DNA of 64,000 nucleotides from the NCBI GenBank assembly GCA_029863605.1, contig JAOTVB010000003.1:20333-84332 (forward strand), given 5' to 3'. How positions within the stretch are numbered: position 1 is the first letter of the stretch; each line of letters starts with the position of its first letter. This DNA comes from Myxococcales bacterium. GTDB taxonomy: Bacteria; Myxococcota_A; Polyangia; Polyangiales; Houyiibacteriaceae. The position numbers were made by a program, and so were the translations under genes. Below are positions 22,214-55,261 of this stretch, piece by piece. The notes beneath the pieces are model-generated. The model saw only the letters and a program-made list of their open reading frames with translations. It made no database searches and was not told where the DNA came from.

Positions 22214-22555
22214 TCGACGAGCGAGTTGCACGTCGATGTTGCGCGAACGATAACAAGTCGTAATTCGAAGTGATTGCAACAGCTTGTCAACAGCAAAGCA
22301 ACGGCTCGTAACGCAGTGCGTGTTGCTGTCAAAAAAACGGCATTTGAATCTTTCGCGATCCCAAGTGTTTAGAAGTTTGTTGTGGGATCACCGTAGACGC
22401 ACTCGAAACAGGCTGCTAGTTTCGCGGCCCTTCACTGGAGGAGCGCCAACCGAATCGGCGGATGGTAAAAGGTGAACGGTAACTCGCCCTGAGCAACGTG
22501 TGGACGACTTGGGGACGAAGACGCTGATGTGCGCGGTTTTCGGGGTAGGGAGACG

Positions 22556-23908
22556 ATGGAACAATTGTGGGAACGGACACTTGGCAGTCTGAAGTCGCAT
22601 CTCTCCTCGGAGAACTTCGAAACCTGGCTCCAACCCGTTCAGTTTGGCGGGGTCGAGCCGGATTCCATCGTTCTACGCATCCCGAACCAGTTCTTCGCAG
22701 ATTGGATATCGGCGCACTACCTCGATCTCATTTTCGACACGCTCGATCGTGAGGCAGGCGACTCGAACGTACCGAAGAAGGTCCGCTGGGAGCTGGACGA
22801 AACCCTGCGTGAAAAAGCACAAGCTGCGCGAGAGTCGACAAAACGCCCTCCGCCGAGGGCGACTCCTCGTGAGCCGTCGGTCTTTTCAGACCTCAATCCA
22901 AAGTATCGCTTCAAGAATTTCGTGGTGGGGCCCGCAAATCAGCTTGCACACGCCGCAAGCGTCGCGGTCGGCTCCGATCCCGGTTCTCGCTACAACCCGC
23001 TTTTCATCTACGGCGGGGTTGGGCTCGGCAAGACCCATTTGGTCAACGCGATCGGTCATACCATCCTCCAACGCAATCCCCGCGCCCGCATCCGCTACGT
23101 TTCGGCTGAGCGCTTTACCAACGAGTTCATCTGGTCACTACAGAATCACGAGATCAGCGCGTTTCGAGACCGTTATCGCTCGCAGTGCGACGTCTTGTTG
23201 ATGGATGACATCCAGTTCCTCGCAGGGCGTGAGCAAACTCAAGAAGAGTTCTTTCATACCTTCAACGCCCTCTATCACTCGGACAAGCAGATCGTCGTCA
23301 CCTCCGACGTCTACCCCCAACAGATCTCGGAGATGCAGGAACGCCTGGTCAGTCGCTTTCAGTCCGGGATGGTCGCCGACGTGCAGGTTCCCGAGCTCGA
23401 CACTCGAATTGCGATCCTGCAAAAGAAGGCGGAGACCGAAGGGATCGCGCTCGTGAGCGAGGTGGCGCTTTTTTTGGCACAGATGGTTCGCAGCAACGTG
23501 CGTGAGCTCGAAGGAACACTCCTCCGGGTCGCCGTGAAGGCGGAGCTCTTGGGTCAGCCCATGGGGCTCGAGCTCGCCAAGGAAACGATGCGTCAGGTGA
23601 CTCCGAACCAAGACATGGCGACTACCGTCGAGGACATTCAACGGATCGCATGCGGGTACTTCGGTGTCCGTTTGACCGACTTGAAGTCCCGTCGCCGGCA
23701 TCGCGCCATCAGCTTTCCCCGGATGGTGTCGATGTACATTTGCCGTCAGCGTCTCGGCACCAGCTATCCTGAGCTCGGCGAGCGCTTCGGGGGAAAGGAC
23801 CACACCACGGTAATCAGCGCCGTACGCAAGATCAGCGGCTTGATCGAAGAGCAAGACGAGCGTGTCTTGAGCGCCGTGGGCGCCATCGAACGCAAGCTAG
23901 GCATCTGA
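22556..23908 (+). CDS. dnaA: Chromosomal replication initiator DnaA
   Basis: ATG at 22556 after GGGAG. MEQLWERTLGSLK.., Walker A GGVGLGKTHL, and a C-terminal DNA-binding helix (..HTTVISAVRKI..). Confidence 0.97.
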   Translation: MEQLWERTLGSLKSHLSSENFETWLQPVQFGGVEPDSIVLRIPNQFFADWISAHYLDLIFDTLDREAGDSNVPKKVRWELDETLREKAQAARESTKRPPPRATPREPSVFSDLNPKYRFKNFVVGPANQLAHAASVAVGSDPGSRYNPLFIYGGVGLGKTHLVNAIGHTILQRNPRARIRYVSAERFTNEFIWSLQNHEISAFRDRYRSQCDVLLMDDIQFLAGREQTQEEFFHTFNALYHSDKQIVVTSDVYPQQISEMQERLVSRFQSGMVADVQVPELDTRIAILQKKAETEGIALVSEVALFLAQMVRSNVRELEGTLLRVAVKAELLGQPMGLELAKETMRQVTPNQDMATTVEDIQRIACGYFGVRLTDLKSRRRHRAISFPRMVSMYICRQRLGTSYPELGERFGGKDHTTVISAVRKISGLIEEQDERVLSAVGAIERKLGI

Positions 23909-24044
23909 GAGCCGAAGGTGCTGAACCCGCTTTCTCAGGGCTCTCCTGCGCGGTTCTCCTGCGCCTAGCAGGCCGGGCCTTTCGCACACTTTTGGTGTAT
24001 ACCCGCCCCTGTGCGCGAAGTGCGATCAAGCTGGGGAACGCACC

Positions 24045-24053
24045 TGTGGATGA
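24045..24053 (-). promoter_or_regulatory. DnaA-box-like 9-mer (TCATCCACA)
   Basis: 8/9 match to TTATCCACA, read directly. Confidence 0.35.
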
Positions 24054-24204
24054 TGCGGGGTTCGATCAATCCCCACTTAGCGCACGATCAACCACGTCAC
24101 CAAAGTTCGCTCAAACCTTAGTTCTTCCGCTTGGTTACATTGCTTCATTCACAATTCACAGCTGTTAAGACGACGACGAGATCTTTAAATTAAGGATCCT
24201 AAGC

Positions 24205-24213
24205 AGTGGATAA
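24205..24213 (-). promoter_or_regulatory. DnaA-box-like 9-mer (TTATCCACT)
   Basis: 8/9 match to TTATCCACA, next to the AT-rich stretch at 24179-24203. Confidence 0.4.
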
Positions 24214-24253
24214 ACAGACAACGCCTTTCATTGGAGTCATGGAGTAACCCAAC

Positions 24254-25399
24254 ATGGAGCTTACGATCGAGAAGCAACAGTTCCTCCGTGGTCTCGCACG
24301 CACACACGGAGTCGCGGATCGCAAAAGCTCGATGCACATCCTGTCGAACGTGTTGCTGTCGGCAGAAGGGAACGACACCCTTCGGCTTTCTGCCACGGAT
24401 CTCTATCTTGGAGTCACCGCGGTCGTTTCTGCGAAGATCAAAGAGGGTGGCACCATAGCCGTGTCGGCTCGCACCCTATTTGACATCGTCAAGAATCTTC
24501 CTGACGGCGAAGTGAGCTGGAAGCTGAGTGACAGTCATGCGGTAGAGCTGAGCTGTGGAAAGGTGCGTTACCGAATTCCTGCGATGCCCGGCGAAGATTT
24601 CCCTCCTCTGCCCAATGCTGGCGACGCCGACTTGGTCGAGCTCGACGCTTCCGTCCTGGCGGATCTGATCGCGCTCACGCAATACTCGATGTCTCACGAT
24701 GACACCCGTCCGCATTTAGCGGGAACTTTGTTCGAGTGCGATGGAAAGGTCGTCCGTATGGTGACGACCGATGGTCACCGGCTATCGAAAGCCGAGCGCA
24801 AGGTTCCTGGAAAAGGCCCCAAAGGCAAGATGAAGAGTTTCAGCATGCTCGTGCCCCACAGAGGCATATCCGAGCTCAAGCGTCTTCTCGAAGACGTCAA
24901 AGCCACAAAGGGTAAGGGCGATGCGGAGACGACCATCGAGATTGCAACCGCAGGGGGTAATGCGTTCTTTCAACGCGACGACCTCTCCCTGAGCGTGAAG
25001 CTGGCAGACGAGCATTTCCCACCGTATGAGAAGGTGATCCCAAGCAAGCAGAGCCGAACGGTGATCGCTGCCCGGGGCCCCTTGGTCGAAGCGCTCCGCC
25101 GGATCAGCCTCGTCGCCAACGACAAGAGTGGCGGCGTGCAGCTGATAATCGAGCCTGGCACCCTGCGGTTGCAGAGCCAAAATCCCGACGTGGGCGAGGG
25201 CAGCGAAGAGGTAGACGTGGATTACGCGGGCGATGATCTACGGATCGGGTTCAACGCAAGGTATCTCCTCGATGCCCTCGGTGCGCTTCCCTACGACGAG
25301 ATCGCCTTGGAGCTCAGTGGGGAGCGTGACCCCGGGGTGCTCAAGCCGGTCGGAAACGGATCAGAGTTCATCGGCGTCATCATGCCTATGCGCATTTAG
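24254..25399 (+). CDS. dnaN: DNA polymerase III beta sliding clamp
   Basis: 381 aa with clamp-like three-domain repeats, directly downstream of dnaA. Confidence 0.97.
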   Translation: MELTIEKQQFLRGLARTHGVADRKSSMHILSNVLLSAEGNDTLRLSATDLYLGVTAVVSAKIKEGGTIAVSARTLFDIVKNLPDGEVSWKLSDSHAVELSCGKVRYRIPAMPGEDFPPLPNAGDADLVELDASVLADLIALTQYSMSHDDTRPHLAGTLFECDGKVVRMVTTDGHRLSKAERKVPGKGPKGKMKSFSMLVPHRGISELKRLLEDVKATKGKGDAETTIEIATAGGNAFFQRDDLSLSVKLADEHFPPYEKVIPSKQSRTVIAARGPLVEALRRISLVANDKSGGVQLIIEPGTLRLQSQNPDVGEGSEEVDVDYAGDDLRIGFNARYLLDALGALPYDEIALELSGERDPGVLKPVGNGSEFIGVIMPMRI

Positions 25400-25451
25400 G
25401 GCCGGGCCGTTGTCTGGTGATTCGCGCACGGTCGAAACGCCAACCCGAGTC

Positions 25452-26519
25452 GTGGTGTTGCGTGCTCGTGGGTTTCGAAACCTCGCGCCGCTGGCGTTCG
25501 AACCCGGTCCTCATTTCAACGTCATCCACGGAGACAACGGCGCCGGGAAGTCGAATCTTCTCGAGGCGATTCATTACCTCGGGGCGCTCAAGAGTTTTCG
25601 AGGTGCCAAGCGCGACGACCTGATCGGGCTCGATTCCGATACCGCCCTGCTCGACGCCACCATCTCAGGCGGCGCTGCACCTCACAAGCTTCGTGTGGAG
25701 CTCGGGAGATCCGAGCGCCGCCGCCTCCAGCTCGATCAAAAGCGACCACGCTCGAGCAGCATTTGGCATCAAACGGTCCAGATGGTGCTTTTTCATCCCG
25801 GCGACCTCATGCTTGCCGTAGGAGGTCCCGACCGGCGTCGCGCTTTTCTCGACCGGATGCTCGAGCAAATCGACCCTATCTATGGGTCGACCCTGGCAAC
25901 CTACGAGAAGGCCCTCCGGAGCCGCAACCGACTCTTGAAGGAGCCATCTGCCGAACGGCGTTCGGTACGCGCTTACGATGCCATCCTGAGCAAGGCAGGG
26001 GCCGTCGTGGGGAAGGCCAGAGCTCGATTGATCGACGACTTGGAGCCGAGGGTCACCCGCGCGTTCGCCGAGGTTTTCGGAGGTGATACTCCCCTCGGGG
26101 TTCGGTACCTGCCGCGGGTCGAGCCTACCGAGGAGGCGATCACCCAGGCGCTCGAGAGCTCGTTCGAGAAGGATTGCGCTCGAGGCTTCACGGCTGACGG
26201 TCCCCATGGTGATGACCTAGAGCTTCGACTTCACGACGTCGGCGCGCGTCATCACGGCTCTCAGGGTCAGCATCGGACGATCGTGTTGGCCCTGAAGACC
26301 GCCGAGCTCGATCTGTTGACCGAGCGCACCGGTCGGGTGCCGATCCTGCTGCTCGACGATGTGTCGAGCGAGCTCGACCGGAGCCGCAACCGGCGGTTCT
26401 TCGAAGTGCTGAGCCATGCGGGCGGGCAGGTCTTCCTGACCACCACGCATCCCGAGTTCATTTTGCTCGAAAACGACCGGGTCGACTTCCAGGTCGACGA
26501 CGGATGCGTCACTCGATGA
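25452..26519 (+). CDS. recF: DNA replication and repair protein RecF
   Basis: ..LRARGFRNL.., Walker A GDNGAGKSNLLEAI, C-terminal ..LLLDDVSSELD... Start is uncertain: GTG 25452 chosen, TTG 25410 possible. The track ORF start lies inside dnaN. Confidence 0.88.
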   Translation: MVLRARGFRNLAPLAFEPGPHFNVIHGDNGAGKSNLLEAIHYLGALKSFRGAKRDDLIGLDSDTALLDATISGGAAPHKLRVELGRSERRRLQLDQKRPRSSSIWHQTVQMVLFHPGDLMLAVGGPDRRRAFLDRMLEQIDPIYGSTLATYEKALRSRNRLLKEPSAERRSVRAYDAILSKAGAVVGKARARLIDDLEPRVTRAFAEVFGGDTPLGVRYLPRVEPTEEAITQALESSFEKDCARGFTADGPHGDDLELRLHDVGARHHGSQGQHRTIVLALKTAELDLLTERTGRVPILLLDDVSSELDRSRNRRFFEVLSHAGGQVFLTTTHPEFILLENDRVDFQVDDGCVTR

Positions 26520-43451: not shown

Positions 43452-44138
43452 TCACCAGCCGAGGATTGCGACCATGACGCCGGTGGCGACGATGAGGGCA
43501 CCCGCCGTGCTATCACCGTAACGCTCGAGCCATTTGCCTTTGAAGAGACGGGCGCCTGAATGGGCCACCGCTACCAGGGCGACCATCGTTCCAATCGTCG
43601 CCGCTTCGTACGCAACCACGATCGACGCGGTTTCGATGCCAGACAGAGGAGCAGCTGCAAACAAGATCGGAATGACCGCGACGCAGGGGTCTGCGCAGTA
43701 GATCAAGAACAACGACCAAGTCGACGCACGCGATGCATCGTGGACGTGATCGTAGTGATGATGGTGATGACCGTGCAGGCGGTGAGCGAGCGAGTGCCGA
43801 AAGCCCCAGACTGCGTACGCCACTCCGAAGCCGATCAAAAGAAGCCCTGCCACCGACTCCATCTTCTCTCCGAGTGACTCGAACAAGTGGGCCCCAAACA
43901 TCAATGCCAGGAGGCCGAGGAGCACCGAGATCGTGACGTGGCCGAGGCCGCAAAGGAGGGCCACCCGTGCCGTGTGGCTGCGCGACCAGCTTCGCGCGCG
44001 CGCGACGGCCGCGATGGGGACCCAGTGGTCCGGCGCCAGAGAATGCAATGATCCCACGGTGATAGCGGCCATCGTGAGTGTGGCAAAAAGGCTAGTGGTG
44101 CTCATGGCTGTGCTCATGACTGTGCGCGTGATGCTCAA
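43452..44138 (-). CDS. Putative nickel/cobalt permease (HX4DH motif, His-rich loop)
   Basis: About 6 TM helices. ..HSLAPDHW.. fits the NiCoT-type H-x4-D-H signature. Loop ..HRLHGHHHHHYDHVHD... Start is uncertain (ATG 44138, 44117 or 44105) and overlaps the hypB 3' end. Confidence 0.6.
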   Translation of the reverse strand: MSITRTVMSTAMSTTSLFATLTMAAITVGSLHSLAPDHWVPIAAVARARSWSRSHTARVALLCGLGHVTISVLLGLLALMFGAHLFESLGEKMESVAGLLLIGFGVAYAVWGFRHSLAHRLHGHHHHHYDHVHDASRASTWSLFLIYCADPCVAVIPILFAAAPLSGIETASIVVAYEAATIGTMVALVAVAHSGARLFKGKWLERYGDSTAGALIVATGVMVAILGW

Positions 44139-44841
44139 GCGATGTGGACCCCGAGCGTTGCGCGGGCCGCTGGGCCTCGAGCCACTCGAGCCATGCGTCG
44201 ATCCCCTCGCCCGTCTTTGCAGAAACCTTCAGGAGCTTTGCGTCGGGCATGACTCTCGAAAGGGCGTCTTCGACCGCGTGGACGTCGAAGTCCAAGTGGG
44301 GGATCAAATCGACCTTGGTCAACAGTACCAGGTCTGCCTTTTGAAACATGACAGGGTACTTCAGCGGTTTGTCTTCGCCTTCGGTGACCGAGAGCGCGAC
44401 GACGTTTGCAGCTTGGCCGAGATCGTAGATCGCGGGGCAAACCAGGTTCCCCACATTCTCGATGAAGAACACATCGCAATCCGAGCATGGAGCGTGATGC
44501 AAGGTGTGATGCACCAGCCGCGCGTCGAGGTGACAAGCCGAGCCAGTGGTGATCGTGGTCGACCGAATCCCTGCGGCGTTCAACCGGTCGGCGTCGCGAT
44601 CGGTTGCGAGGTCGCCGCTCACCGCTCCGAGACGAAGCCTCCCTCCGGCTGCTCGGGCGGTGGCCTCGAGAACTGCCGTCTTTCCGGCTCCTGGGGAGCC
44701 CATCAAGTTGATGGCAAGCACCGCTAACCCTTCGAAATGACGACGATTATGGGCTGCCTGCGCATCGTTGTCGGAGAGGATCCGCTCCTGCACCTCGACC
44801 GGGACGATCTCGGGGTCGCCGCATCCACAGGTCTCACACAT
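44092..44841 (-). CDS. hypB: Hydrogenase nickel-incorporation GTPase HypB
   Basis: MCETCGCG N-terminal metal site, GSPGAGKT P-loop, ..ENVGNLVCP.., His-rich C-terminal tail ..EHHAHSHEHSHEHH. Confidence 0.95.
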   Translation of the reverse strand: MCETCGCGDPEIVPVEVQERILSDNDAQAAHNRRHFEGLAVLAINLMGSPGAGKTAVLEATARAAGGRLRLGAVSGDLATDRDADRLNAAGIRSTTITTGSACHLDARLVHHTLHHAPCSDCDVFFIENVGNLVCPAIYDLGQAANVVALSVTEGEDKPLKYPVMFQKADLVLLTKVDLIPHLDFDVHAVEDALSRVMPDAKLLKVSAKTGEGIDAWLEWLEAQRPAQRSGSTSLEHHAHSHEHSHEHH

Positions 44842-45182: not shown

Positions 45183-46028
45183 TCATCCCTCGCTTTCGAA
45201 ACGTGGAGCACGCTTCTCGAAAAACGCCGCGATGCCCTCGGCAAAGTTCGGCCCATCAGCAATGCGCGCGAGCTCGGTCAGCTCCGCGTCGAGGTGGACG
45301 TCGAGCCGGTCCATCCCGGCCGCCTGGTTGAGGAGGTTCTTGGCAGCGGCGACCGCGGACGTCGGGGCTTCGGCAAGCTGAGTAGCGATTTCGAGAGCTT
45401 TCTCGCCGAAGGAATCATCCGGAAAAACCCGGTTGATCAGCCCCCATTCCAAGGCGTCTCGAGCCGATAGACGCGGGTTCAGCAGGACGAGCTCGAGCGC
45501 CTTTCGTAGCCCCAACAACCGCGGCAAAAAGAAGGTGGAGCTCTCCGCACCGGTCAGGCCCGTCTTGAAGTAGGCCCATTCGAACCACGCGCGCTCCGAT
45601 GCGACGACGAGGTCGCAACTCATGGCGATCCCGAAGCCCCCGGCGGCCGCAGGGCCATCGACCGCGGCGATGAACGGCTTTGGCGCGCGCCGAATCTCCG
45701 AAATGGTGCTGTGGATGTATTCGAGGATCTGTTTGAAGATCTCGCCGTAACCCTCCGTCGGTTGGCAAGTGCTCGGCTGCAGGTAACCGAGGTCGGTGTC
45801 GTCGCCTCCGTCGCGGATGTACTTGAGGTCGGCGCCGCTACAAAATACGCCGCCTTCGCCACAGATCAAAACCGAACGAACCTCTTTGTCTCGCGCGAGT
45901 CGGAGGCCGGCCTTCCTGAAGTCTTGAGCCGTCTCGACATCGAGAGAGTTCAGTCGCTCGCGGCGAGCGATCGTCAGGATGCCCACGGGGCCACGTCGTT
46001 CGACTCGGATGTGTTTCATCTCGGTCAT
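45183..46028 (-). CDS. Crotonase-fold (enoyl-CoA hydratase/isomerase family) protein embedded in the hyp operon
   Basis: ATG at 46028 lies 1 nt after the hypE stop codon. Its own stop codon ends 1 nt before the hypA ATG. ..GEGGVFCSGADL.. and ..FIAAVDGPAAAGGFGIAMSCD.. are oxyanion-hole segments. Confidence 0.85.
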   Translation of the reverse strand: MTEMKHIRVERRGPVGILTIARRERLNSLDVETAQDFRKAGLRLARDKEVRSVLICGEGGVFCSGADLKYIRDGGDDTDLGYLQPSTCQPTEGYGEIFKQILEYIHSTISEIRRAPKPFIAAVDGPAAAGGFGIAMSCDLVVASERAWFEWAYFKTGLTGAESSTFFLPRLLGLRKALELVLLNPRLSARDALEWGLINRVFPDDSFGEKALEIATQLAEAPTSAVAAAKNLLNQAAGMDRLDVHLDAELTELARIADGPNFAEGIAAFFEKRAPRFESEG

Positions 46029-46029
46029 G

Positions 46030-47070
46030 TCAGCAGATCCTAGGTAAGAGCTCGCCTTCGGCCTCCGAGAGCAAACGGCTCCCAAACCCCGTATCGAGCA
46101 CGACGAACCCGGGTCGCTCAGCCACGCATTGTCCGACGATTGCAGCCATTCGTCCGAGCGGGTGCGAGCGGATCGCGTCGAGAACGCCGGCCGCGCTTTC
46201 AGGCCGAACGCCAAATACTGCCTTTCCTTCGTTCGCCGAAACCAGCGGGTCGATGCCAAGCAGTTCCCCGACCGCACGAACCTCGTCGCGCAACGGGATC
46301 GACGGCTCATCGATCACGATCCCAACCCCGCTCTTCTCGGCCATCTCGTGCAGGGCGCTCGACAAGCCACCGCGCGTGGGATCTTTCAGCGCGACGATCC
46401 CGTCGCCTCCGACCTCGAGCGCACGTCGGACCATGGTATTGATCGGAGCGACGTCCGAAACGAGCTCGGTTTCCAAGGCCAGCTCGTTTCGCGTCGCCAT
46501 GATCGCCAGACCGTGATCTCCCATCGTTCCTGTCACCAGGATTTGGTCCCCAGGCTCGAGCCCGGCATCGGTCACGATTCGGTCGGTGATGCCCACGCCG
46601 GTCGTGTTCAACACCAGGCCGTCGAGCTCGCCGTGCCCCATCACTTTCGTGTCGCCGGTGACGATAGTCGTTCCCGCTTCTTCGCAGCACGTGCGGATCG
46701 ACTTCCAGATGCCCTTCAACGTCTCGCGGGAAAACCCATCTTCGACGATCGCGGCGCAGGTGAGCGCAAGCGGCTCAGTAGCTCCCATCATCGCGAGATC
46801 ATTGACGGTTCCGGCGACAGCGAGCGTTCCGATGTCGCCTCCCGGAAAGACGATCGGCTGGACCACGTGAGAGTCGGTCGTGATCACCAGGTAGCGATCG
46901 CCCAGTCGGATCGCCGCACCGTCGTCCATCGCCGCCAAGCCGACGTTTCCTTCTCCTAGGTCGCCGAGGCCCTTGGCGAAGATCTGCTCGATCAGCGCGC
47001 GCATCGCGCCACCGCCGGTGCCGTACTTGAGCGTGATGCGCTCGTCGATGAGGCGGGCGTTTCGAGTCAT
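46030..47070 (-). CDS. hypE: Hydrogenase maturation protein HypE
   Basis: 346 aa PurM-like fold with C-terminal ..PRIC. Confidence 0.95.
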   Translation of the reverse strand: MTRNARLIDERITLKYGTGGGAMRALIEQIFAKGLGDLGEGNVGLAAMDDGAAIRLGDRYLVITTDSHVVQPIVFPGGDIGTLAVAGTVNDLAMMGATEPLALTCAAIVEDGFSRETLKGIWKSIRTCCEEAGTTIVTGDTKVMGHGELDGLVLNTTGVGITDRIVTDAGLEPGDQILVTGTMGDHGLAIMATRNELALETELVSDVAPINTMVRRALEVGGDGIVALKDPTRGGLSSALHEMAEKSGVGIVIDEPSIPLRDEVRAVGELLGIDPLVSANEGKAVFGVRPESAAGVLDAIRSHPLGRMAAIVGQCVAERPGFVVLDTGFGSRLLSEAEGELLPRIC

Positions 47071-48215
47071 GCGACACCTCGCTTCATCGAGCTGAGATCG
47101 GGGTGGCCGCCGTACTGATGCCAGATCCTGCAGGTGCCTTCAGCGCTGACCATGCACGCACCGACCGGCGTGTCGGGCGTGCACTCTTTGCCGAACAAGG
47201 AGCAGTCGGAGGGTGAGGCGATCCCGGCCATGATGTCTCCGCACTGGCATTGCTGAACGAGCTTCGGCGGTGCGTAGCTCCACAACGCAGACGCGTCGAT
47301 CGTGAACCGCTTTCTCGTGTCGTAGCGGGCGAACTCGTCCCGCAATCGGAGGTTTCCGTTGGGCACGTGCGCGATGCCTCGCCAACGGCCTCCCGTAGGC
47401 CGAAAAACGCGCCAAAGAAGCTCCTGAGCGTGCGCGTTGCCTTCCCGTGTGACGCATCGGGGATAGGCGTTTTCGACCTTGGCCTCCCCTGCGTTGATCA
47501 GCTCGAGCAGTCGAACGAGGCCCGCAAGAACGTCCAAGGGTTCGAAGCCCGCCACCACGACCGGCAAACGGTGACGTTCGACGAATTTTTCGAAAACCGC
47601 CGAGCCGGTGATCGTGGCTGCATGGCCCGCTGCGAGAAAGCCCTCGATCTTGGTCTCGGGCATCTCCGCCACGATCTCCATGACCGGGGGGATGTACTTG
47701 TGTGCGGAGAGGACGGAAAAATTGTCGGGCGGATCGTCCACGAGGACAGCCGCGGTTGCGACTGCGGTCGTCTCGAAGCCCGACGCAAAGAAGACCAGCT
47801 CCTCGTCGGTGTCACGGGCGAGGTCGACCGCTTGCGTGACGCTGTAGACCACGTCGACATGGGCGCCGTCGGCCTTGGCGTCGGCGAGCGATTGCGAGGT
47901 TCCCGGCACGCGAAGCATGTCGCCGTAGGACGCGATGCGTACGCCCTGCTTGGCGAGGGCTACCGCTTCGTCCACTTCTGGCACATCCGTCACACAAACC
48001 GGACAGCCTGGGCCCATTATAACCCGCAAATCAGCCGGAAAAGCAGCCCTCAAGCCGAACTTCGCGATCGCCTGCTCGTGGCTGCCGCAGACGTGCATCA
48101 CCGAAACCGGAGCATGATCGGCGCGAGACACCAAGCGCTCGAGGGCGTCTCTCAGGGCCCGCGCCCGAACTGGATCGCGAAATTTTAGCTGCGCAAGCGC
48201 GTCATTCGGAAGCAT
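47067..48215 (-). CDS. hypD: Hydrogenase maturation protein HypD
   Basis: 382 aa. ..MHVCGSHE.., ..GPGCPVCV.., ..FETT... Confidence 0.95.
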   Translation of the reverse strand: MLPNDALAQLKFRDPVRARALRDALERLVSRADHAPVSVMHVCGSHEQAIAKFGLRAAFPADLRVIMGPGCPVCVTDVPEVDEAVALAKQGVRIASYGDMLRVPGTSQSLADAKADGAHVDVVYSVTQAVDLARDTDEELVFFASGFETTAVATAAVLVDDPPDNFSVLSAHKYIPPVMEIVAEMPETKIEGFLAAGHAATITGSAVFEKFVERHRLPVVVAGFEPLDVLAGLVRLLELINAGEAKVENAYPRCVTREGNAHAQELLWRVFRPTGGRWRGIAHVPNGNLRLRDEFARYDTRKRFTIDASALWSYAPPKLVQQCQCGDIMAGIASPSDCSLFGKECTPDTPVGACMVSAEGTCRIWHQYGGHPDLSSMKRGVA

Positions 48216-48525
48216 CGTAGGCCTCCCTTGCTGAGGGCGCAGCGTAGGGTGCGGCGTCGATCTCGGACCGTATGTCCTGGGTTATCAGGTCTTGGTCATC
48301 CGCGAGCCGCAAGAGCTCGTCGTAGAGCGCGAGAGTTTCGATCGCCTCGTCGGGAGGAATGCGACGGATCGCAAACCCGACGTGGTTCAGAATGTAGTCG
48401 CCCGGTGCTACCGGCACGTCACAGACCTCGAGGCGCACCTCCTTCTTCACGCCCCAAAAATCGACTGTCGCGGTGTTGCGATCACGATCGACGGCGACGA
48501 CCTGCCCTGGAACACCTAAGCACAT
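48202..48525 (-). CDS. hypC: Hydrogenase maturation chaperone HypC
   Basis: ATG at 48525 gives MCLGVPGQVV.. (essential N-terminal Cys2). The C-terminal tail is longer than usual. Confidence 0.9.
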   Translation of the reverse strand: MCLGVPGQVVAVDRDRNTATVDFWGVKKEVRLEVCDVPVAPGDYILNHVGFAIRRIPPDEAIETLALYDELLRLADDQDLITQDIRSEIDAAPYAAPSAREAYDASE

Positions 48526-50807
48526 GGGGTTGAGCCTTCCGCTACGATTGCGTTCGCGATCAATACCTGTCCGAGGGCGAGCCCACCGTCTCCCGGCGGC
48601 ACTCGAGAATGCGTGAAGCATTCGAATTCATTTTGTAATTCGGCCAGAACACCCTGGGTCAGGATCGGGTTTTGAAACACTCCTCCGGTAAGCACCACAG
48701 GTGGCTGTCCGATCACCTCGGCCAAGCCACGCACCACGGCGCCCGTTGCTCCGATCAGCGTGTTGTGGAACTTCGCCGAGATCGTGCTCGCCGCAACGCC
48801 GCGCATTACATCTTCGACGACCGCGCGAACCATCGGTCGGAGGTCGATGATCTCGACCGCCCCGGTGCGGTCGATCTCGAACGGATACGAGGCACGCTCG
48901 GTCACATCCGCGATCACGTTCAAAGCGACCGCCACCTGTCCTTCGAACGTCGAGTCTGGGCGGTTCAGCACCAAAGCCCCAACCGCGTCGAAGTAGCGCC
49001 CGACGCCATGCGCTTGCGGCGCGTTGAGATGGCGATCGATCATCTGAGTGACTACGCGAATCGATTCGTCGGGAATCCTTTGAAAGAGCGGAAATTCATC
49101 GATCGGTGCGTCTCCGGAGAACGCGTCATGCAGCAGGCTGAGGGCCACGCGCCACACCTCGCGCATGGCGAGGTTTCCGCCCGGGAGCTTGATCGGCCGA
49201 AACGTCGCCAAACGCCGAAAATGCCCTGTGAAACAGAGCAAGAGCTCCCCGCCCCACGCAGTGCCGTCGTTTCCGTAGCCCGTGCCGTCGTAAGCGATTC
49301 CGAGCACCGGTCCCCGCAGACCATGCTCGGCCATCGCGCTCACCACGTGGGCGTGGTGGTGCTGCACGCCGATCGTCTCCGCTCCGCCTCGCGCTTTCGC
49401 GTAGCGCGTCGACAGGTAGCCAGGATGCAGGTCGTGCGTGACCACTTCCGGCTCCACCGAAAGAATCGTTTGCATGCGATCGACCGCCTCTTCGAAAAAC
49501 TCCATGGCTGCGAGCGTTTCGAGGTCTCCGATGTGGGGCCCGAAGTACGCCGTGTCCTCTACGGCGATGCAGAAGGTGTTCTTGAGGTGTGCACCACAGG
49601 CAAGGACCGGGCGGTCGACGGATTCTTTCAACTGGAACGGCCTTGGAACGAACCCGCGCGAACGACGCATGACCGTCGCTTTTCCGGCGATCACCCGAGC
49701 GACCGAATCATCGCAACGCATCGCGATGTCGCGGTCGTGGACCAAAAGGACATCCGCAATGCCTCCGAGTCGTGCGATCGCCTCCGCGTTGTCCTTGCAA
49801 ATCGGCTCGCCTGCGATGTTGGCCGAGGTCATGACCAGTGGGCGATCGACTTCGCGAAGGAGCAGGTGGTGGAGGGGTGTATACGGCAAGAAAAGCCCTA
49901 AAACAGGGGATTCCGGGGCCACCTCCGCGGCGAGTGGAGCATCGGGACGGCGCTCGACCAGGACGATCGGCCTCTCCTGCGACGAAAGCAGCAATTCCTC
50001 TTCTGTCGTCAAGTTCGCAAGCGACCTGGCCACCGCGAGGTCACGCGCCATGACGGCGAACGGTTTTTCGTCTCGATGCTTTCGCGCGCGAAGCTTTCGA
50101 ACCACAGGCGCATCGGACGCGTCGCATGCGAGATGAAACCCCCCCAACCCTTTGATCGCGACGATCGCTCCGCCGCGAAGCAAGCCGACTGCAGTCGCCA
50201 GCGGGTCGTCGCAGATCGTCTCGGTGCCATCCGGCTCGCACAAAGAGAGCTTTGGTCCGCATTCGGGGCACGCATTGGGCTGCGCATGGAACCGACGATC
50301 CATGACATCGTGAAACTCGCGCTCGCACGATGGGCACAGAGCAAAGTCATGCATCGTCGTCGCAGAGCGATCATAGGGAATGTCCGTCGTGATCGTGAAA
50401 CGCGGACCGCACTCGGTGCAGTTCGTGAAGGGATATCGGTATCGACGATCGTTCGGGTCGAGCACCTCCTCTTCACACTTGTTGCAAGTTGCGAGATCCG
50501 GCGGAATCGAAAGAGCCCGGGCGCCGACCCCCTCGCTTGGCTCGATCACGAAGTCCTCGGCCAGCTCCGGCGGGATCTTCGAAAGGCGCAGCTCTCGGAT
50601 CCGGGCAGAGGCAGGCGTATCATCCCGTAACCATTGAACAAACGACTCTAGCGACCCTGCACCTCCAAATGCTTCGATCGTCACTCCTTCCGAATGGTTC
50701 CACACCCGACCAGCCAGGCCTGCGCGGCGCGCCAACCGGTATACCCAAGGTCGAAACCCAACCCCTTGCACCGTGCCGCGCACCTCGATTCGACATCCCT
50801 CGCTCAT
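48516..50807 (-). CDS. hypF: Carbamoyltransferase HypF
   Basis: ATG at 50807. Acylphosphatase domain (..VRGTVQGVGFRPWVY..), two zinc-finger pairs, YrdC-like and Kae1-like domains. 763 aa. Confidence 0.95.
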   Translation of the reverse strand: MSEGCRIEVRGTVQGVGFRPWVYRLARRAGLAGRVWNHSEGVTIEAFGGAGSLESFVQWLRDDTPASARIRELRLSKIPPELAEDFVIEPSEGVGARALSIPPDLATCNKCEEEVLDPNDRRYRYPFTNCTECGPRFTITTDIPYDRSATTMHDFALCPSCEREFHDVMDRRFHAQPNACPECGPKLSLCEPDGTETICDDPLATAVGLLRGGAIVAIKGLGGFHLACDASDAPVVRKLRARKHRDEKPFAVMARDLAVARSLANLTTEEELLLSSQERPIVLVERRPDAPLAAEVAPESPVLGLFLPYTPLHHLLLREVDRPLVMTSANIAGEPICKDNAEAIARLGGIADVLLVHDRDIAMRCDDSVARVIAGKATVMRRSRGFVPRPFQLKESVDRPVLACGAHLKNTFCIAVEDTAYFGPHIGDLETLAAMEFFEEAVDRMQTILSVEPEVVTHDLHPGYLSTRYAKARGGAETIGVQHHHAHVVSAMAEHGLRGPVLGIAYDGTGYGNDGTAWGGELLLCFTGHFRRLATFRPIKLPGGNLAMREVWRVALSLLHDAFSGDAPIDEFPLFQRIPDESIRVVTQMIDRHLNAPQAHGVGRYFDAVGALVLNRPDSTFEGQVAVALNVIADVTERASYPFEIDRTGAVEIIDLRPMVRAVVEDVMRGVAASTISAKFHNTLIGATGAVVRGLAEVIGQPPVVLTGGVFQNPILTQGVLAELQNEFECFTHSRVPPGDGGLALGQVLIANAIVAEGSTPCA

Positions 50808-51205
50808 GGCCCGTTTCCTGAGACGCTCAGAACATAGGTGACCACCTCCCACTTTTCTTGGTCCGTCAAGGTGGGCCACGCGGGCATCGAGGTCCCGCGT
50901 TTGCCTTCGCTCACGACCGCGTAGACGCCGCGCGGCGTCGCACTTGCACGCCACTCCTGGCTTTGAAAGTTGACGGGTCGCGCCGAGAGCCCTTCCTGCC
51001 GCACGCCGTTTCCATCGGCACGCACGCCGTGGCACAGGGCACACTTCTCGCTGAAGATCGCACGCCCACGCACGCGCGCCTCGTCCGAAGCGAGGAGACC
51101 GGCAGGCACCGGGAGGTTCCGATAATCGGTCGGGAGGCGCCCATCAACGCCGTTACACGCCGAGAGTGCGAGCGACATGATCAACGCTCCTCGTGCTGTT
51201 CTCAT
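50804..51205 (-). CDS. Class I c-type cytochrome, probable lipoprotein
   Basis: ..LALSAC lipobox, a single CALCH haem motif, ..GTSMPAW.. (axial Met region). Start is ATG 51205 or 51178. Its stop overlaps the hypF ATG (ATGA). Confidence 0.75.
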   Translation of the reverse strand: MRTARGALIMSLALSACNGVDGRLPTDYRNLPVPAGLLASDEARVRGRAIFSEKCALCHGVRADGNGVRQEGLSARPVNFQSQEWRASATPRGVYAVVSEGKRGTSMPAWPTLTDQEKWEVVTYVLSVSGNGP

Positions 51206-51701
51206 GGCGATCCAATCGTCGAATCGGCGGATAACCGAGCGTGCGGAGCTCCTCCACGACTCGCTCGACGAGCTCGGGAATGCTGGCTTCGACCGCTTCG
51301 GTACGGCCAAGGCCGAGGTCGATGCTTTGTGGGACTACGCCGATCAACACCACTCGGTCCGGGTAGCGGTCGAGCAGGCTTGCTCCTGCGAGCAGGTCCG
51401 CGACCCCAATTTGATGCGGGGACAAGCGCTCGTAGACAGCGGGGGCTACTTCGTCGCCCTCGATCCTGACGAGCGTTCCAGGTGGCCCCTCAGCGCGGAT
51501 CGCGTCGACCATGATCACCTGCTCGGCGCTGTCGACGAGTGGCAAGAGCGACAGCCCGAGCGTGCCTCCGTCGAGCGCCAACACACCCTCCGGAAGATCG
51601 TACTCCCGGAGCAGCTTGTGGATCGCCGCGATGCCCGCTCCATCGTCTTGGCAAACCACGTTGCCAAGTCCGAGGACCAACACCGGCGTCCGCTCACTCA
51701 T
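51153..51701 (-). CDS. [NiFe] hydrogenase maturation endopeptidase (HyaD/HupD family)
   Basis: ..VLVLGLGNVVCQDDGAG.., ..VDAIRAEGPPG.., ..SPHQIG... Confidence 0.9.
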   Translation of the reverse strand: MSERTPVLVLGLGNVVCQDDGAGIAAIHKLLREYDLPEGVLALDGGTLGLSLLPLVDSAEQVIMVDAIRAEGPPGTLVRIEGDEVAPAVYERLSPHQIGVADLLAGASLLDRYPDRVVLIGVVPQSIDLGLGRTEAVEASIPELVERVVEELRTLGYPPIRRLDRHENSTRSVDHVARTLGV

Positions 51702-52434
51702 CACGCTTGCGCCATGACCGCGGAAGGAACTTGTAACCGCTGAACATCGAATCGATGAGGCCGTGTCCCTCGGACCGCGAGACCAGAATCGCGCTCCAGA
51801 TGTGGTGGGCGAAGAAGCCGAGGAGCAGCCACATCGCGATGTGATGAATCCACCGTGCAGTCTGCGCGCCGCCGAGGATCGGAAGCAGGAAGTCCCACAT
51901 TTTCATGTACGACACGCCCGCCCCGACGGAGTACAGGGCAAGCCCGGTCACGATCATCGTGAAGTAGAGCGCGAACACGAGGAGATAGGTGAGCCCGGCA
52001 AGGGGGTTATGCCCAACGTTCAAAGGGGGCTCCCGACTGAGGAAAGTGTAGAACTTGAGCATGCTCCACACGTCGCGGCGGCGGCGCGCGCTTGCCGGCA
52101 CGAATTGGTGCCATCGCGCGTAGTACGAGCCGACGAACATCCAGCCGACACGGACCAGCACGGCTAGCGTGAACACGATCGCGGTGTAGGAGTGGACGAC
52201 CTTCATCGTCCCCATCACGAACTGTTGGTCTTCTGCGCCGGCGGGGATGAAGAAGGGCCTTCCGATGTAGATACCTGTGACCGCCTGGATCAGGATCGCG
52301 AGCATGATGATCCAGTGCGTCAGGCGCACGACCGCATCCCACACGTAGACACGCTCGAGCCCTCCGGTCTCGTCTTTGGCTCGATAGCTGACCTCTGGCC
52401 GTGCACCTCCGGCGGTTGTCGTCGGCGGGGTCAT
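51694..52434 (-). CDS. [NiFe] hydrogenase b-type cytochrome subunit (HyaC/HupC family)
   Basis: ATG at 52434 overlaps the large-subunit stop (ATGA). 246 aa, 4 TM helices, conserved His residues (..RLTHW.., ..HSYTA.., ..RWIHHI..). Confidence 0.9.
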   Translation of the reverse strand: MTPPTTTAGGARPEVSYRAKDETGGLERVYVWDAVVRLTHWIIMLAILIQAVTGIYIGRPFFIPAGAEDQQFVMGTMKVVHSYTAIVFTLAVLVRVGWMFVGSYYARWHQFVPASARRRRDVWSMLKFYTFLSREPPLNVGHNPLAGLTYLLVFALYFTMIVTGLALYSVGAGVSYMKMWDFLLPILGGAQTARWIHHIAMWLLLGFFAHHIWSAILVSRSEGHGLIDSMFSGYKFLPRSWRKRDE

Positions 52435-54137
52435 CTCGCCTTCACGCGAGTGACCTCGCGCCCTCCCGTGTCGACCACGTGCACACCGCAGGCCATGCAG
52501 GGATCGAACGAATGAACGGTACGGAGGATCTCGATCGGTTGCTCGGGATCCGCAACGGGTGTTCCGACCAGGGCTGCCTCGTAAGGCCCAGGGGTATCGC
52601 CGGCGTCGCGTGGCCCAGCGTTCCAGGTGCTCGGGACGACGCACTGATAGCGATTGATTTTGGCGTCTTTGATGTGCACCCAGTGACCGAGCGCACCGCG
52701 CGGCGCCTCGTGGAAGCCAGCACCCGTGGACTCTTTCGGCCAAGAGCTCGGCTCCCATTTGCTGTTGTCGTGGATGCGAAGCTCGCCACTGCCCATGTTG
52801 GCCGCGAGCTCGTCGACCCAGTCGCCGATCTTATCGACGAGAACCTGGGTTTCGATACCGCGCGCGGCAACTCTACCGAGGGTCGAGAACAGGGCCGCGG
52901 GCCCGACTTCGAGCTTCTTGAGCACCGCGTTGACCAGGGCGGTCACCTGCTCATGTCCCTGAACGTAGGAGACGAGCATGCGAGAGAGCGGCCCCACCTC
53001 CATCGGCACGCCGTCGTAGCGCGGGGATTTCAGCCACGAGTACTTCTCCGAAGTGTTGAGACGCTCGTAGGGTGGCTCCGGCCCGGTGTAGTTCGGGCTG
53101 GTCTCGCCCTCCGATGGGTGGAGCGCCTGGTCATCCCCGGCCGCGTAGTCGTACCAGGAGTGTTTGATGTGCTCCGTGATCTTTGATGCATCAAACGCTT
53201 CCACCTTCGAAATATCCCGGTTGCGGATGATGCCGGATGGAATGAAGAGCGGAGAGTTCGACTCGTCGTTCAGTGGGTACTCGCCGTAGACCATGTAGTT
53301 CCCGACGCCGGCGCCGTACCCAGCCCAGTCTTTGTAGAACGAAGCGACGGCCAACAGGTCCGGGATGTAGACTTGGCTCACGAACTGCTTCGCGCCGGCG
53401 ATCATGTCCTTGAAGGCGGCGATCGAATGCACGTTGAGGGCGGCCTGAGCATTCGGATCGACCGGCGTCGCCATGCCTCCCACCAAAAAGCTCTGCAGAT
53501 GTGGGTTTTTCCCGCCCAGAATCGCATGCATCTTGATGAACTCGCGCTGCCAATCGAGGGCCTCGAGGTAGTGTGCGACCGCCATGAGATTGGCCTCCGG
53601 CGGAAGCTTGTATGCGGGATGACCCCAATAGGCGTTGCCAAACGGGCCGAGCTGCCCGCGGTCCACGAGCCCCTTGATGCGGTCTTGGATCCCCTTGAAG
53701 TACGTCGTGCTTGACTTGGGCCAGTTCGAGATCGATTGAGCGAGCGTGGACGTCCCTGCCGGGTCGGCCTTCAGTGCGGACACGATGTCGACCCAATCGA
53801 GCGCATGCAGATGATAGAAATGGATGACGTGATCCTGAATGCACTGCGACGCGATGATCAGGTTCCTCAAGATGCGGGCGTTCGGTGGCGGTTTCGCGCC
53901 GATGGCATTTTCGACGGCGCGAATCGAAGCGATCGCGTGCACCGTCGTGCAGACTCCGCAGATCCGTTGAGTAAAGGCCCACGCATCGCGTGGGTCGCGG
54001 CCCTGTAAGATGATCTCGATCCCTCGGAACATCGTGGAGGACGACCAGGCGTTCGATACCTGACCTCCATCGACCTCTGCCTCGATGCGTAGGTGACCTT
54101 CGATGCGCGTGACCGGATCGACGACGATATGAGTCAT
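52431..54137 (-). CDS. [NiFe] hydrogenase large subunit (group 1-like)
   Basis: ..RIEGH.., RICGVCTTVH, and C-terminal DPCMACGVH followed by a 15-aa extension for protease cleavage. Confidence 0.97.
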   Translation of the reverse strand: MTHIVVDPVTRIEGHLRIEAEVDGGQVSNAWSSSTMFRGIEIILQGRDPRDAWAFTQRICGVCTTVHAIASIRAVENAIGAKPPPNARILRNLIIASQCIQDHVIHFYHLHALDWVDIVSALKADPAGTSTLAQSISNWPKSSTTYFKGIQDRIKGLVDRGQLGPFGNAYWGHPAYKLPPEANLMAVAHYLEALDWQREFIKMHAILGGKNPHLQSFLVGGMATPVDPNAQAALNVHSIAAFKDMIAGAKQFVSQVYIPDLLAVASFYKDWAGYGAGVGNYMVYGEYPLNDESNSPLFIPSGIIRNRDISKVEAFDASKITEHIKHSWYDYAAGDDQALHPSEGETSPNYTGPEPPYERLNTSEKYSWLKSPRYDGVPMEVGPLSRMLVSYVQGHEQVTALVNAVLKKLEVGPAALFSTLGRVAARGIETQVLVDKIGDWVDELAANMGSGELRIHDNSKWEPSSWPKESTGAGFHEAPRGALGHWVHIKDAKINRYQCVVPSTWNAGPRDAGDTPGPYEAALVGTPVADPEQPIEILRTVHSFDPCMACGVHVVDTGGREVTRVKAR

Positions 54138-55261
54138 GCGTCACCTCCTTCCGAGCCTTTGGTAGGGTCTGCGGGCTTGTCTTCGCCTCCAGAACCGACC
54201 AGCTTCTTGCCGAGGTGAATCAGGGTGTGCGTTCCAAACGCAGCCGCGACGCCGACGGTTCCCCAGAAGCCGACCTTGTCGATGTTCGAAGCCTTTCCAA
54301 AGCCCGGGAAACCCGGAAGGTGGGCGTAGAAGGGCGTCATCTTGTCCCAGAAATCAGGCTCGGCGCAGCCGATGCATCCGTGGCCGCAGGCGATCGGCCA
54401 GCTGGTGTTGTCGTTCCAGCCGACATTCGGGCAGTTCTGGAAAGACACCGGCCCCTTGCAGCCCATCTTGTAGAGGCAGTGCCCCTGGCGGTGAGCCTCG
54501 TCGCCCCACTGCTCCACATACTGGCCGGAGTCGTAGTGCGCTCGTCTCTCGCAGTTGTCGTGAATGGACTTTCCGTATGCGAAGAGCGGTCGGTTCAGTG
54601 CGTCGGTTGCCGGCCAGCGTCCATAGGTAAGGAAATACACGACGGTAGCCGTGAGGTTCTCGGCGTTCACTGGACAAGCCGAGAGATTGATCTGCGTCTT
54701 GATCCCGGGAACTGCGTCAGCGACACCCAACGCGCCCGTTGGATTCGGTGACGCCGCAGGGAGCCCACCGAAAGTCGCGCAAGTGCCGACCGCAATGACT
54801 GCGGCAGCATTGCTGCACACTTCGTTCGCGATCTGCAGGGCGGACTTGCCGCCGATCGTGCAGTACGCACCGTTTGCTCCGGTTGGGATCGAGCCCTCGA
54901 CGACCGCGATGTATTGGCCCTGCTTGTTCTTCACCACCGACTCGAGCGCTTCTTCGGCTCGATGTCCGGCCGCCGCCATGATCGTCTCGTGGTAATCGAT
55001 CGAAAGGAGGTCGAGCACGACCTCGGCAGCGCTTGGTTTGCTCGAGCGCAGAAACGACTCGGTGTTGCCAGCACAGTCCTGGAACTCCAGCCAGACCAAT
55101 GTCGGCTTGGGTTTGTTCTCGAGTGCGTCTGCGATCGCGGCAGCCGCGCTCTTCGGCAAACCGATCATCACGGCCATCGCGGAGCAGAAGCCCAGGAACT
55201 CGCGGCGCGATACTCCGCGCGCCTCCAACTCGCGGCATAGATCACTCGTCGGTCCGTCCAT
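54134..55261 (-). CDS. [NiFe] hydrogenase small subunit with Tat signal
   Basis: ATG at 55261 after GAGGAGG. Tat motif SRREFLG, FeS-cluster Cys/His pattern, C-terminal TM anchor. The first cluster motif reads DCAGNTES rather than C-x-x-C. Confidence 0.95.
   Translation of the reverse strand: MDGPTSDLCRELEARGVSRREFLGFCSAMAVMIGLPKSAAAAIADALENKPKPTLVWLEFQDCAGNTESFLRSSKPSAAEVVLDLLSIDYHETIMAAAGHRAEEALESVVKNKQGQYIAVVEGSIPTGANGAYCTIGGKSALQIANEVCSNAAAVIAVGTCATFGGLPAASPNPTGALGVADAVPGIKTQINLSACPVNAENLTATVVYFLTYGRWPATDALNRPLFAYGKSIHDNCERRAHYDSGQYVEQWGDEAHRQGHCLYKMGCKGPVSFQNCPNVGWNDNTSWPIACGHGCIGCAEPDFWDKMTPFYAHLPGFPGFGKASNIDKVGFWGTVGVAAAFGTHTLIHLGKKLVGSGGEDKPADPTKGSEGGDA

Follow-up and report, generated by a model that had tools for sequence, protein, structure and literature searches.

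Asparagine or aspartate in place of the second cysteine of the proximal iron–sulfur cluster motif is an already described trait of some [NiFe] hydrogenase small subunits, and the present analysis deals with a small subunit of this kind, encoded in a stretch of 64,000 nucleotides from a Myxococcales bacterium (GenBank assembly GCA_029863605.1, contig JAOTVB010000003.1, positions 20,333 to 84,332 of the forward strand), the whole of which is referred to as the window. The gene, located on the minus strand at 54134..55261, codes for a subunit that reads C-A-G-N where standard enzymes read C-T-G-C. Judged from its sequence and its gene neighbourhood, the locus very likely corresponds to an intact, chromosomal, cytochrome-b-anchored group 1 [NiFe] uptake hydrogenase, exported by the twin-arginine translocation (Tat) pathway and belonging to the described Asn/Asp-type family. 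As far as sequence comparisons go, Asn at the second proximal position has become fixed in a large and old clade of small subunits, and is neither a lesion nor a private innovation.

With respect to group 1f, Asn or Asp at the proximal Cys has been reported for the enzymes of Roseiflexus, Geobacter and Frankia (Mohammadi et al., PMC5364354), and the group 2a enzymes carry Asn at the same place (PMC5364354). Yonemoto et al. (2014) list in their Table 1, with multiple members for each substitution, the change of Cys at proximal position 2 to Asn in Nostoc punctiforme and to Asp in Geobacter metallireducens, and report that Alteromonas macleodii HynS with engineered substitutions mimicking the natural variants keeps a measurable activity (PMC4070099). 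Group 1f itself bears the HydDB label 'oxygen-protecting, unresolved role' (PMC5037454), has been linked to the oxidation of H2 under aerobic and sub-atmospheric conditions, with sub-atmospheric uptake in the case of Acidobacterium ailaaui (PMC6776052, PMC7174314), and has been called a polyphyletic and little studied class (PMC6896113). An initial sequence-only reading of the window had implied that the substitution was new, while allowing that Asn at this site might be typical of a described subgroup; the latter is what is found (PMC5364354, PMC4070099), the exchange of the proximal Cys for Asn or Asp being already described for groups 1f and 2a, and the novelty is gone.

Among the solved enzymes, two occupy a particular position for the comparison. 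In Huc, the group 2a hydrogenase of Mycobacterium smegmatis (7utd/7uur), all three clusters of the small subunit HucS are of the [3Fe-4S] type, as derived from cryo-electron microscopy maps at 1.52 Å, from the nature of the fourth residue and from electron paramagnetic resonance, and the raised operating potential of the enzyme is credited partly to these [3Fe-4S] clusters (PMC10017518). The second one is HofK, the small subunit of the actinobacterial-type group 1h (1h/5) enzyme of Cupriavidus necator (5aa5), which possesses a non-Cys residue at the same proximal column.

Cluster ligands of the small subunit

The product of the small-subunit gene is a hupS/hyaS-type precursor of 375 amino acids, recognized by PF01058 and PF14720 as well as by TIGR00391 (405 bits for a cutoff of 179.5), and its best match in a phmmer search of the solved structures is 1h2a_S (1.6e-98), from Desulfovibrio vulgaris Miyazaki F. 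Residues 1–46 make up the Tat signal, with the twin-arginine motif SRREFLGF at residues 18–25 (RREFLGF, 19–25), and the mature subunit begins at L47. Since the mature chain of Escherichia coli Hyd-1 (LENKPR) starts opposite residue 47 in the phmmer alignment, the mature numbering C17/N20 used for the proximal motif is sound. A hydropathy scan locates a C-terminal hydrophobic anchor helix at residues ~330–349 (54215..54274, minus strand).

The first proximal-cluster motif, C63-A64-G65-N66 (mature C17..N20), is encoded at 55064..55075 on the minus strand, as deduced from the translation, the structure alignments and the relatives. The translated segment is ..LVWLEFQDCAGNTESFLRS..; on the minus strand, the codons around the motif are cag gac tgt gct ggc aac acc gag tcg, and AAC, the codon of Asn66 (precursor numbering), occupies positions 55066-55064. 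Asn66 is paired by phmmer with the second C-T-G-C cysteine of the D. vulgaris Miyazaki F enzyme (1h2a), and with the last Cys of the wild-type C-T-C-C of the membrane-bound hydrogenase (MBH) of C. necator (3rgw) and of E. coli Hyd-1 (3uqy), the two latter alignments, as printed, being those of engineered variants of MBH and Hyd-1. The absence of the second proximal Cys, which was the central claim of the sequence-only reading, is therefore borne out by the alignment with the solved enzymes. The two remaining proximal ligands, announced by the same reading, are also in place according to the reference alignment: Cys161, the third ligand, in GTCATFGG (54779..54781, minus strand), and Cys196, the fourth, in SACPV (54674..54676, minus strand).

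In order to relate these positions to HucS and HofK, the column was bridged via HoxB, the regulatory small subunit of C. necator, which reads C-G-G-C; the same HoxB column corresponds to the C-A-G-N of the window in a multiple alignment. Aligned to HoxB, HucS (7utd_B) reads C-S-G-N and HofK (5aa5) reads C-D-G-D, so that Asn and Asp, respectively, occupy the column of Asn66, and the analogy drawn at the outset with Asp-ligated or [3Fe-4S] proximal clusters holds at the level of the residue. In the reference alignments, the residue in front of the first proximal Cys (55073-55081) tracks the type of ligand, the Asn/Asp types reading Q-D-C and the all-Cys types E-C. At the sequence level, QDC-x-G-[N/D] is a simple signature of the family, as opposed to EC-T-G-C in the standard enzymes.

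The medial-cluster region (54365..54433, minus strand) comprises C277, P289, C296 and C299, which form a standard [3Fe-4S] pattern, together with an additional Cys292 within WPIACGHGCIGC; the extra Cys noticed beforehand in PIACGHGCIGC is this C292. The distal [4Fe-4S] cluster is predicted from the same reference alignment to be held by a standard 3Cys+His set consisting of H234, C237, C262 and C268 (54458..54562, minus strand). Neither of the two supernumerary Cys residues of the group 1d enzymes (C-T-C-C; G-x-C-x-x-x-G-C) occurs in the alignment, their positions being occupied by Gly65 and Gly166. Any resistance to O2 would consequently have to depend on something other than the group 1d mechanism, because the 6-Cys [4Fe-3S] cluster is missing. 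The small subunit was modelled with AlphaFold2 from a 20-sequence alignment, but the result was poor and was left unused (mean predicted local distance difference test score, pLDDT, of 59); the pLDDT falls below 50 at residues 63–66 and 228–322, which are the cluster-binding parts.

Spread of the asparagine and group membership

The distribution of the trait was examined in a genome scan restricted to one genome per species, in which 525 genomes contained a relative; the best 80, all of them metagenome-assembled genomes (MAGs), were examined. C-x-G-N is present in 80 out of 80, distributed over the Myxococcota (Polyangiales), the Acidobacteriota (Vicinamibacteria, Thermoanaerobaculia and Holophagae) and one genome of Gemmatimonadota. 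Both Asn codons are in use (AAC in 76 genomes, AAT in 4), which indicates that the residue has been maintained through synonymous change. Among the closest 120 protein clusters (69–95% identity), 117 carry Asn, two Cys and one Asp, and Asn, Asp or Glu fills this column in about 20 of the best 150 representatives of 50%-identity clusters. It is this typical occurrence in a large clade, along with the published descriptions, that removes the novelty first attributed to the substitution. A minority form, C-C-G-N, occurs in 6/120 clusters and 6/80 genomes, mostly from Acidobacteriota; its extra Cys directly follows the first proximal ligand and lies one position from the extra Cys of the O2-tolerant C-T-C-C. 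Two Asn-type sequences with C-S-G-N, P0145 (809 amino acids) and P0159 (600 amino acids), possess a long N-terminal extension or fusion, the hydrogenase domain beginning from residue ~290–500.

A neighbour-joining tree of the small subunit was built on the core region, without support values, using references of groups 1b, 1c, 1d and 1e and leaving out group 1a. With the exception of one separate lineage, all full-length and cleanly aligned representatives bearing Asn, Asp or Glu are grouped together with the window clade in a single superclade. The separate lineage also has Asn or Asp, and its CAGN member P0244 belongs to a group 1 lineage according to a search of the PDB; a few partial or chimeric sequences of the Asn type were placed elsewhere. 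The superclade stands apart from 1b (D. vulgaris), 1c (HybO), 1d (HyaA, HoxK) and 1e (A. macleodii HynS), and the window falls outside all of these reference clades. It includes two annotated enzymes of cultured bacteria, those of Sulfurimonas paralvinellae (QDCAGN) and Sulfobacillus acidophilus (QDCDGN), each of which carries a Tat motif and is encoded beside a cytochrome b gene. The window enzyme had correctly been described beforehand as Tat-exported and cytochrome-b-linked, as attested by its twin-arginine signal and by the TIGR02125 cytochrome b encoded downstream; the oddity seen in finding the substitution in such an enzyme disappears, the same combination being found in the cultured Sulfurimonas and Sulfobacillus.

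The Sulfurimonas enzyme, a HydABC-type hydrogenase of the Campylobacterota encoded on plasmid NZ_CP041407, resembles that of the window by its Tat signal, by the order of the genes for the small subunit, the large subunit and cytochrome b, by its QDCAGN motif and by its position in the superclade. It differs, however, by an identity of 46.5% for the small and 50% for the large subunit and by a Val at the position of Cys292, and no cytochrome c gene comes next in the locus sequence examined. A tblastn search of plasmids gave no match above 50% identity. Membrane-bound hydrogenases of this Campylobacterota HydABC type are usually filed under group 1b. The group 1b enzyme of D. vulgaris Miyazaki F (1h2a) shares with the window a small subunit of ~50% identity, the same fold and the same medial and distal ligands, but possesses C-T-G-C with four proximal Cys residues and is a soluble periplasmic enzyme devoid of any C-terminal anchor or cytochrome b.

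The features expected for group 1 are all found, i.e., the Oxidored_q6 and NiFe_hyd_SSU_C domains of the small subunit and a NiFeSe_Hases large subunit with the L1 (RxCGxC) and L2 (DPCxxC) motifs, as are those of its membrane-bound members, namely a Tat signal, a cytochrome b subunit and a dedicated endopeptidase encoded in the operon. Within group 1, the large subunit is 47–50% identical to each of the 1b, 1c, 1d and 1e references, from which the enzyme is distinct, and the solved subunits of group 1a ([NiFeSe]) are distant matches (158–178 bits for the small, 302–333 bits for the large subunit). The two subunits differ in their nearest solved relative, the large one being closest to the 1e enzyme of Allochromatium vinosum (3myr_B, 733 bits; others ≤652) and the small one to the 1b enzyme of D. 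vulgaris Miyazaki F. The names given by NCBIfam are generic and include no model at the level of the subgroups.

Three other identities were considered and rejected. That of an O2-tolerant group 1d enzyme with a 6-Cys [4Fe-3S] cluster fails on Gly65 and Gly166, found at both supernumerary Cys positions. A high-affinity group 1h/5 enzyme is at variance with the presence of a Tat signal and of cytochrome b and with Asn instead of Asp; the match to 5aa5 amounts to only 105 bits, and the L1 motif of that group, TSRICGICGDNH, differs from the QRICGVCTTVH of the window. In this respect HofK, with neither Tat signal nor cytochrome b (PMC5364354), is a distant relative whose likeness resides in the non-Cys residue. 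A group 2a enzyme is at variance with the Tat signal and with the standard distal (H/C/C/C) and medial (C/P/C/C) ligands, 7utd reaching only 103 bits. Huc and the window have C-x-G-N in common, and the proximal cluster of Huc is experimentally [3Fe-4S]; in contrast to the window enzyme, Huc is cytosolic, lacks a Tat signal, delivers its electrons differently by binding menaquinone directly, and contains [3Fe-4S] clusters exclusively (PMC10017518), its distal cluster included, where that of the window is standard.

Assignment to HydDB group 1f is probable, given the proximal set of three Cys plus Asn (C63/N66/C161/C196), which corresponds to the three Cys plus Asn/Asp of that group, and given the placement of the window beyond the 1b–1e reference clades. 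The published 1f enzymes, such as Geobacter sulfurreducens Hya and those of A. ailaaui, Roseiflexus and Frankia synton-3, similarly combine Asn or Asp at the proximal Cys with standard medial and distal ligands (PMC5364354). Two points weigh against this assignment. The comparison was made with published descriptions of 1f instead of named sequences, and the Cys at position 5 of WPIACGHGCIGC departs from the published medial motif, xPIxAGHxCxGC with Ala at position 5 (PMC6501319), although this motif is a consensus rather than a strict criterion. The same departure characterizes the clade as a whole: Cys292 (codon 54386-54388), within WP-[IV]-x-C-G-H-x-C-x-G-C, is retained in 79/80 genomes and in 119/120 of the closest clusters, whereas each of the other group 1 clades examined, Asn/Asp types included, has Ala, Ser, Val or Ile at this position. 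A cytochrome c encoded in the operon of the window clade is likewise absent from the published descriptions of 1f that were considered.

Nature of the proximal cluster

The gene set suggests that H2 would be oxidized at the NiFe site in the periplasm, and that electrons would pass from a three-Cys proximal centre to the [3Fe-4S] medial and the [4Fe-4S] distal clusters, and from there reach the quinone pool via cytochrome b. Asn66 would hardly act as a thiolate-like ligand, and by analogy with the structure solved for Huc the proximal centre may be of the [3Fe-4S] type and of higher potential; we give this reading about an even chance. A proximal cluster of higher potential would bias the enzyme to H2 oxidation coupled to high-potential acceptors. 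Several observations weigh against such a cluster. Its type is borrowed from a distant group 2a relative and not from the window clade. Asn is replaced by Asp within the clade (P0071, of 74% identity, P0121, P0122 and P0131), and reversion of Asn to Cys has occurred in P0058, P0087 and P0125; an exchange among Asn, Asp and Cys better fits a residue which still sits at the ligand position of a [4Fe-4S] cluster. Moreover, an Asp at this very column ligates a [4Fe-4S] cluster in the group 1h enzyme of C. necator (as cited in PMC5364354).

The alternative that follows from these observations is a [4Fe-4S] proximal cluster in which the carboxamide O or N of Asn66 binds the fourth iron, in parallel with the Asp-ligated cluster found in group 1h. 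It may be regarded as a tentative but serious possibility, considering that the residues swap among sequences as close as 74–75% identity to the window, that in HofK (5aa5) the Asp reportedly completes a [4Fe-4S] cluster (PMC5364354), that the HynS mimics of natural variants remain active (PMC4070099), and that the literature prior to Huc assumed an Asn-coordinated 4Fe4S cluster in group 2a (PMC5364354). Against this alternative stands Huc, the sole C-x-G-N enzyme solved, whose proximal cluster is [3Fe-4S]. Asn is a very rare ligand of iron–sulfur clusters, which also speaks against its binding the fourth iron. A substitute Cys completing an all-Cys cluster appears very improbable. The strong conservation of Cys292 and the occurrence of C-C-G-N in 6 of the 120 clusters could make Cys292, Cys134 or, in the C-C-G-N variants, Cys64 seem eligible, but Cys292 is part of the medial motif (WP-x-x-C-GH-x-C-x-x-C), away from the proximal ones, and Sulfurimonas, Sulfobacillus, P0122 and P0131 have Val or Ala in its place and nevertheless miss the proximal Cys; Cys134 is also found in 1d enzymes with their full set of ligands, and the window has Ala64 instead of Cys64. 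The possibility, raised from the start, that a nearby Cys takes over the ligand position hence finds no support, Cys292 being medial and no clade-specific Cys occurring near the proximal motif.

Two further readings make the window an exception. A hydrogenase of a new kind, O2-insensitive, of high affinity and restricted to this organism, as the C-x-G-N shared with Huc and the link of group 1f to sub-atmospheric H2 uptake by A. ailaaui (PMC6776052, PMC7174314) might suggest, is unlikely for a trait widespread across hundreds of genomes and already described, and for an enzyme whose distal cluster, unlike that of Huc, is standard. The chance that Asn results from a mistake in sequencing or assembly, or is the sign of a pseudogene in decay, is next to nil, and this explanation was rejected, no evidence having been found in its favour. 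Three independent sediment-metagenome assemblies contain contigs identical to the window over 54950-55180, and no variant at 55064-55066 was found among four metagenome runs. Two substitutions separate AAC from TGC or TGT, as the sequence-only reading had rightly objected to a single-base error; Asn is found in all 80 genomes with synonymous codons, and the other ligands are intact, as are the L1 and L2 motifs and the genes for maturation.

The operon, its setting and the extras of the clade

The hydrogenase genes follow each other on the minus strand in the order small subunit, large subunit, cytochrome b, endopeptidase, cytochrome c, hypF, hypC, hypD and hypE, then a HypB-like GTPase, and the order of the hydrogenase genes is kept in the related loci. 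The large subunit (52431..54137; 568 amino acids; PF00374, 789 bits; best PDB match 3myr_B) contains intact L1 (QRICGVCTTVH) and L2 (SFDPCMACGVH) motifs and a C-terminal extension for cleavage by the protease. The b-type cytochrome membrane subunit (51694..52434) comprises 246 amino acids from its ATG (MTPPTT) with ~4 transmembrane segments in the hydropathy profile, and is recognized by PF01292 and TIGR02125 (153 bits for a cutoff of 121.5). It is followed by a HyaD/HybD-type maturation endopeptidase (51153..51704; PF01750) and by a monohaem c-type cytochrome with the motif CALCH (50804..51205; PF13442 / PF00034), the start of which is uncertain (51205 or 51178) and the stop of which overlaps the start of hypF (ATGA); this cytochrome is probably a lipoprotein, as suggested by its LALSAC lipobox. 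The maturation genes, identified by their Pfam domains, are the carbamoyltransferase gene hypF (48516..50807), hypC (48202-48525), hypD (47067-48215) and hypE (46030-47070), and the HypB/CobW-type GTPase (PF02492) is encoded at 44092..44841, all of them on the minus strand. An open reading frame of the enoyl-CoA hydratase/isomerase family (45183-46310, minus strand) is located between hypE and the GTPase gene; as listed, it overlaps the end of hypE by ~280 bases, and its true start probably lies further downstream.

The neighbouring genes have housekeeping functions, dnaA and recF are ~30 kb away and the GC content is even (~0.62), all of which point to a chromosomal locus. Besides dnaA (22529-23908), this region contains a likely but unchecked dnaN (24254-25399) and a recF-like SMC_N ATPase (25233-26519), and the window probably spans the origin region of chromosomal replication at ~30 kb from the hydrogenase operon. 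The lowest GC content of the window, 0.58, is found there, at 22–26 kb (dnaA/recF region, 22529-26519). The host is a sediment bacterium of the Myxococcota (Polyangiales-like). Its small subunit is 99% identical to that of the nearest genome, the Myxococcales MAG JAOTYL010000010. DNA of the window also occurs in sediment metagenomes.

Two features, Cys292 and the cytochrome c gene, distinguish the clade from the other Asn/Asp-type enzymes examined. Cys292 lies three residues past the Pro equivalent to the medial Pro of D. fructosovorans, the replacement of which by Cys turns the medial cluster of that enzyme into a [4Fe-4S] cluster (summarised in PMC4463661). In 54 related loci, from Myxococcota and Acidobacteriota, the protease gene is followed by that of a cytochrome c with a CxxCH motif, which is absent from the Kofleriaceae-type loci among the related loci examined; uptake hydrogenases linked to cytochrome b are not usually described as having a dedicated cytochrome c. 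On account of these two features, the clade of Myxococcota, Acidobacteriota and Gemmatimonadota might form an unrecognised subgroup of group 1, characterized by three Cys plus Asn, an extra Cys on the medial side and a lipoprotein cytochrome c, and acting as the equivalent of Huc in the periplasm, anchored to the membrane and with a relay of high potential. We hold this to be rather improbable.

The substitution alone carries little weight, being a described trait of the family, but the Asn/Asp-type family to which it belongs is very common in uncultured bacteria of soils and sediments. What is at stake is whether Asn tunes the affinity for H2, the catalytic bias or the resistance to O2. In this respect, the structure of Huc makes the [3Fe-4S] reading testable in the Tat-exported, cytochrome-b-linked type, cultured carriers of which exist in Sulfurimonas and Sulfobacillus, as seen here, and in Geobacter according to the literature. 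If the clade did form a subgroup of the kind described above, with proximal and medial clusters both of the [3Fe-4S] type, soil and sediment bacteria would be able to oxidize H2 at low levels while O2 is present, sending the electrons on towards cytochromes of the c type and terminal oxidases.

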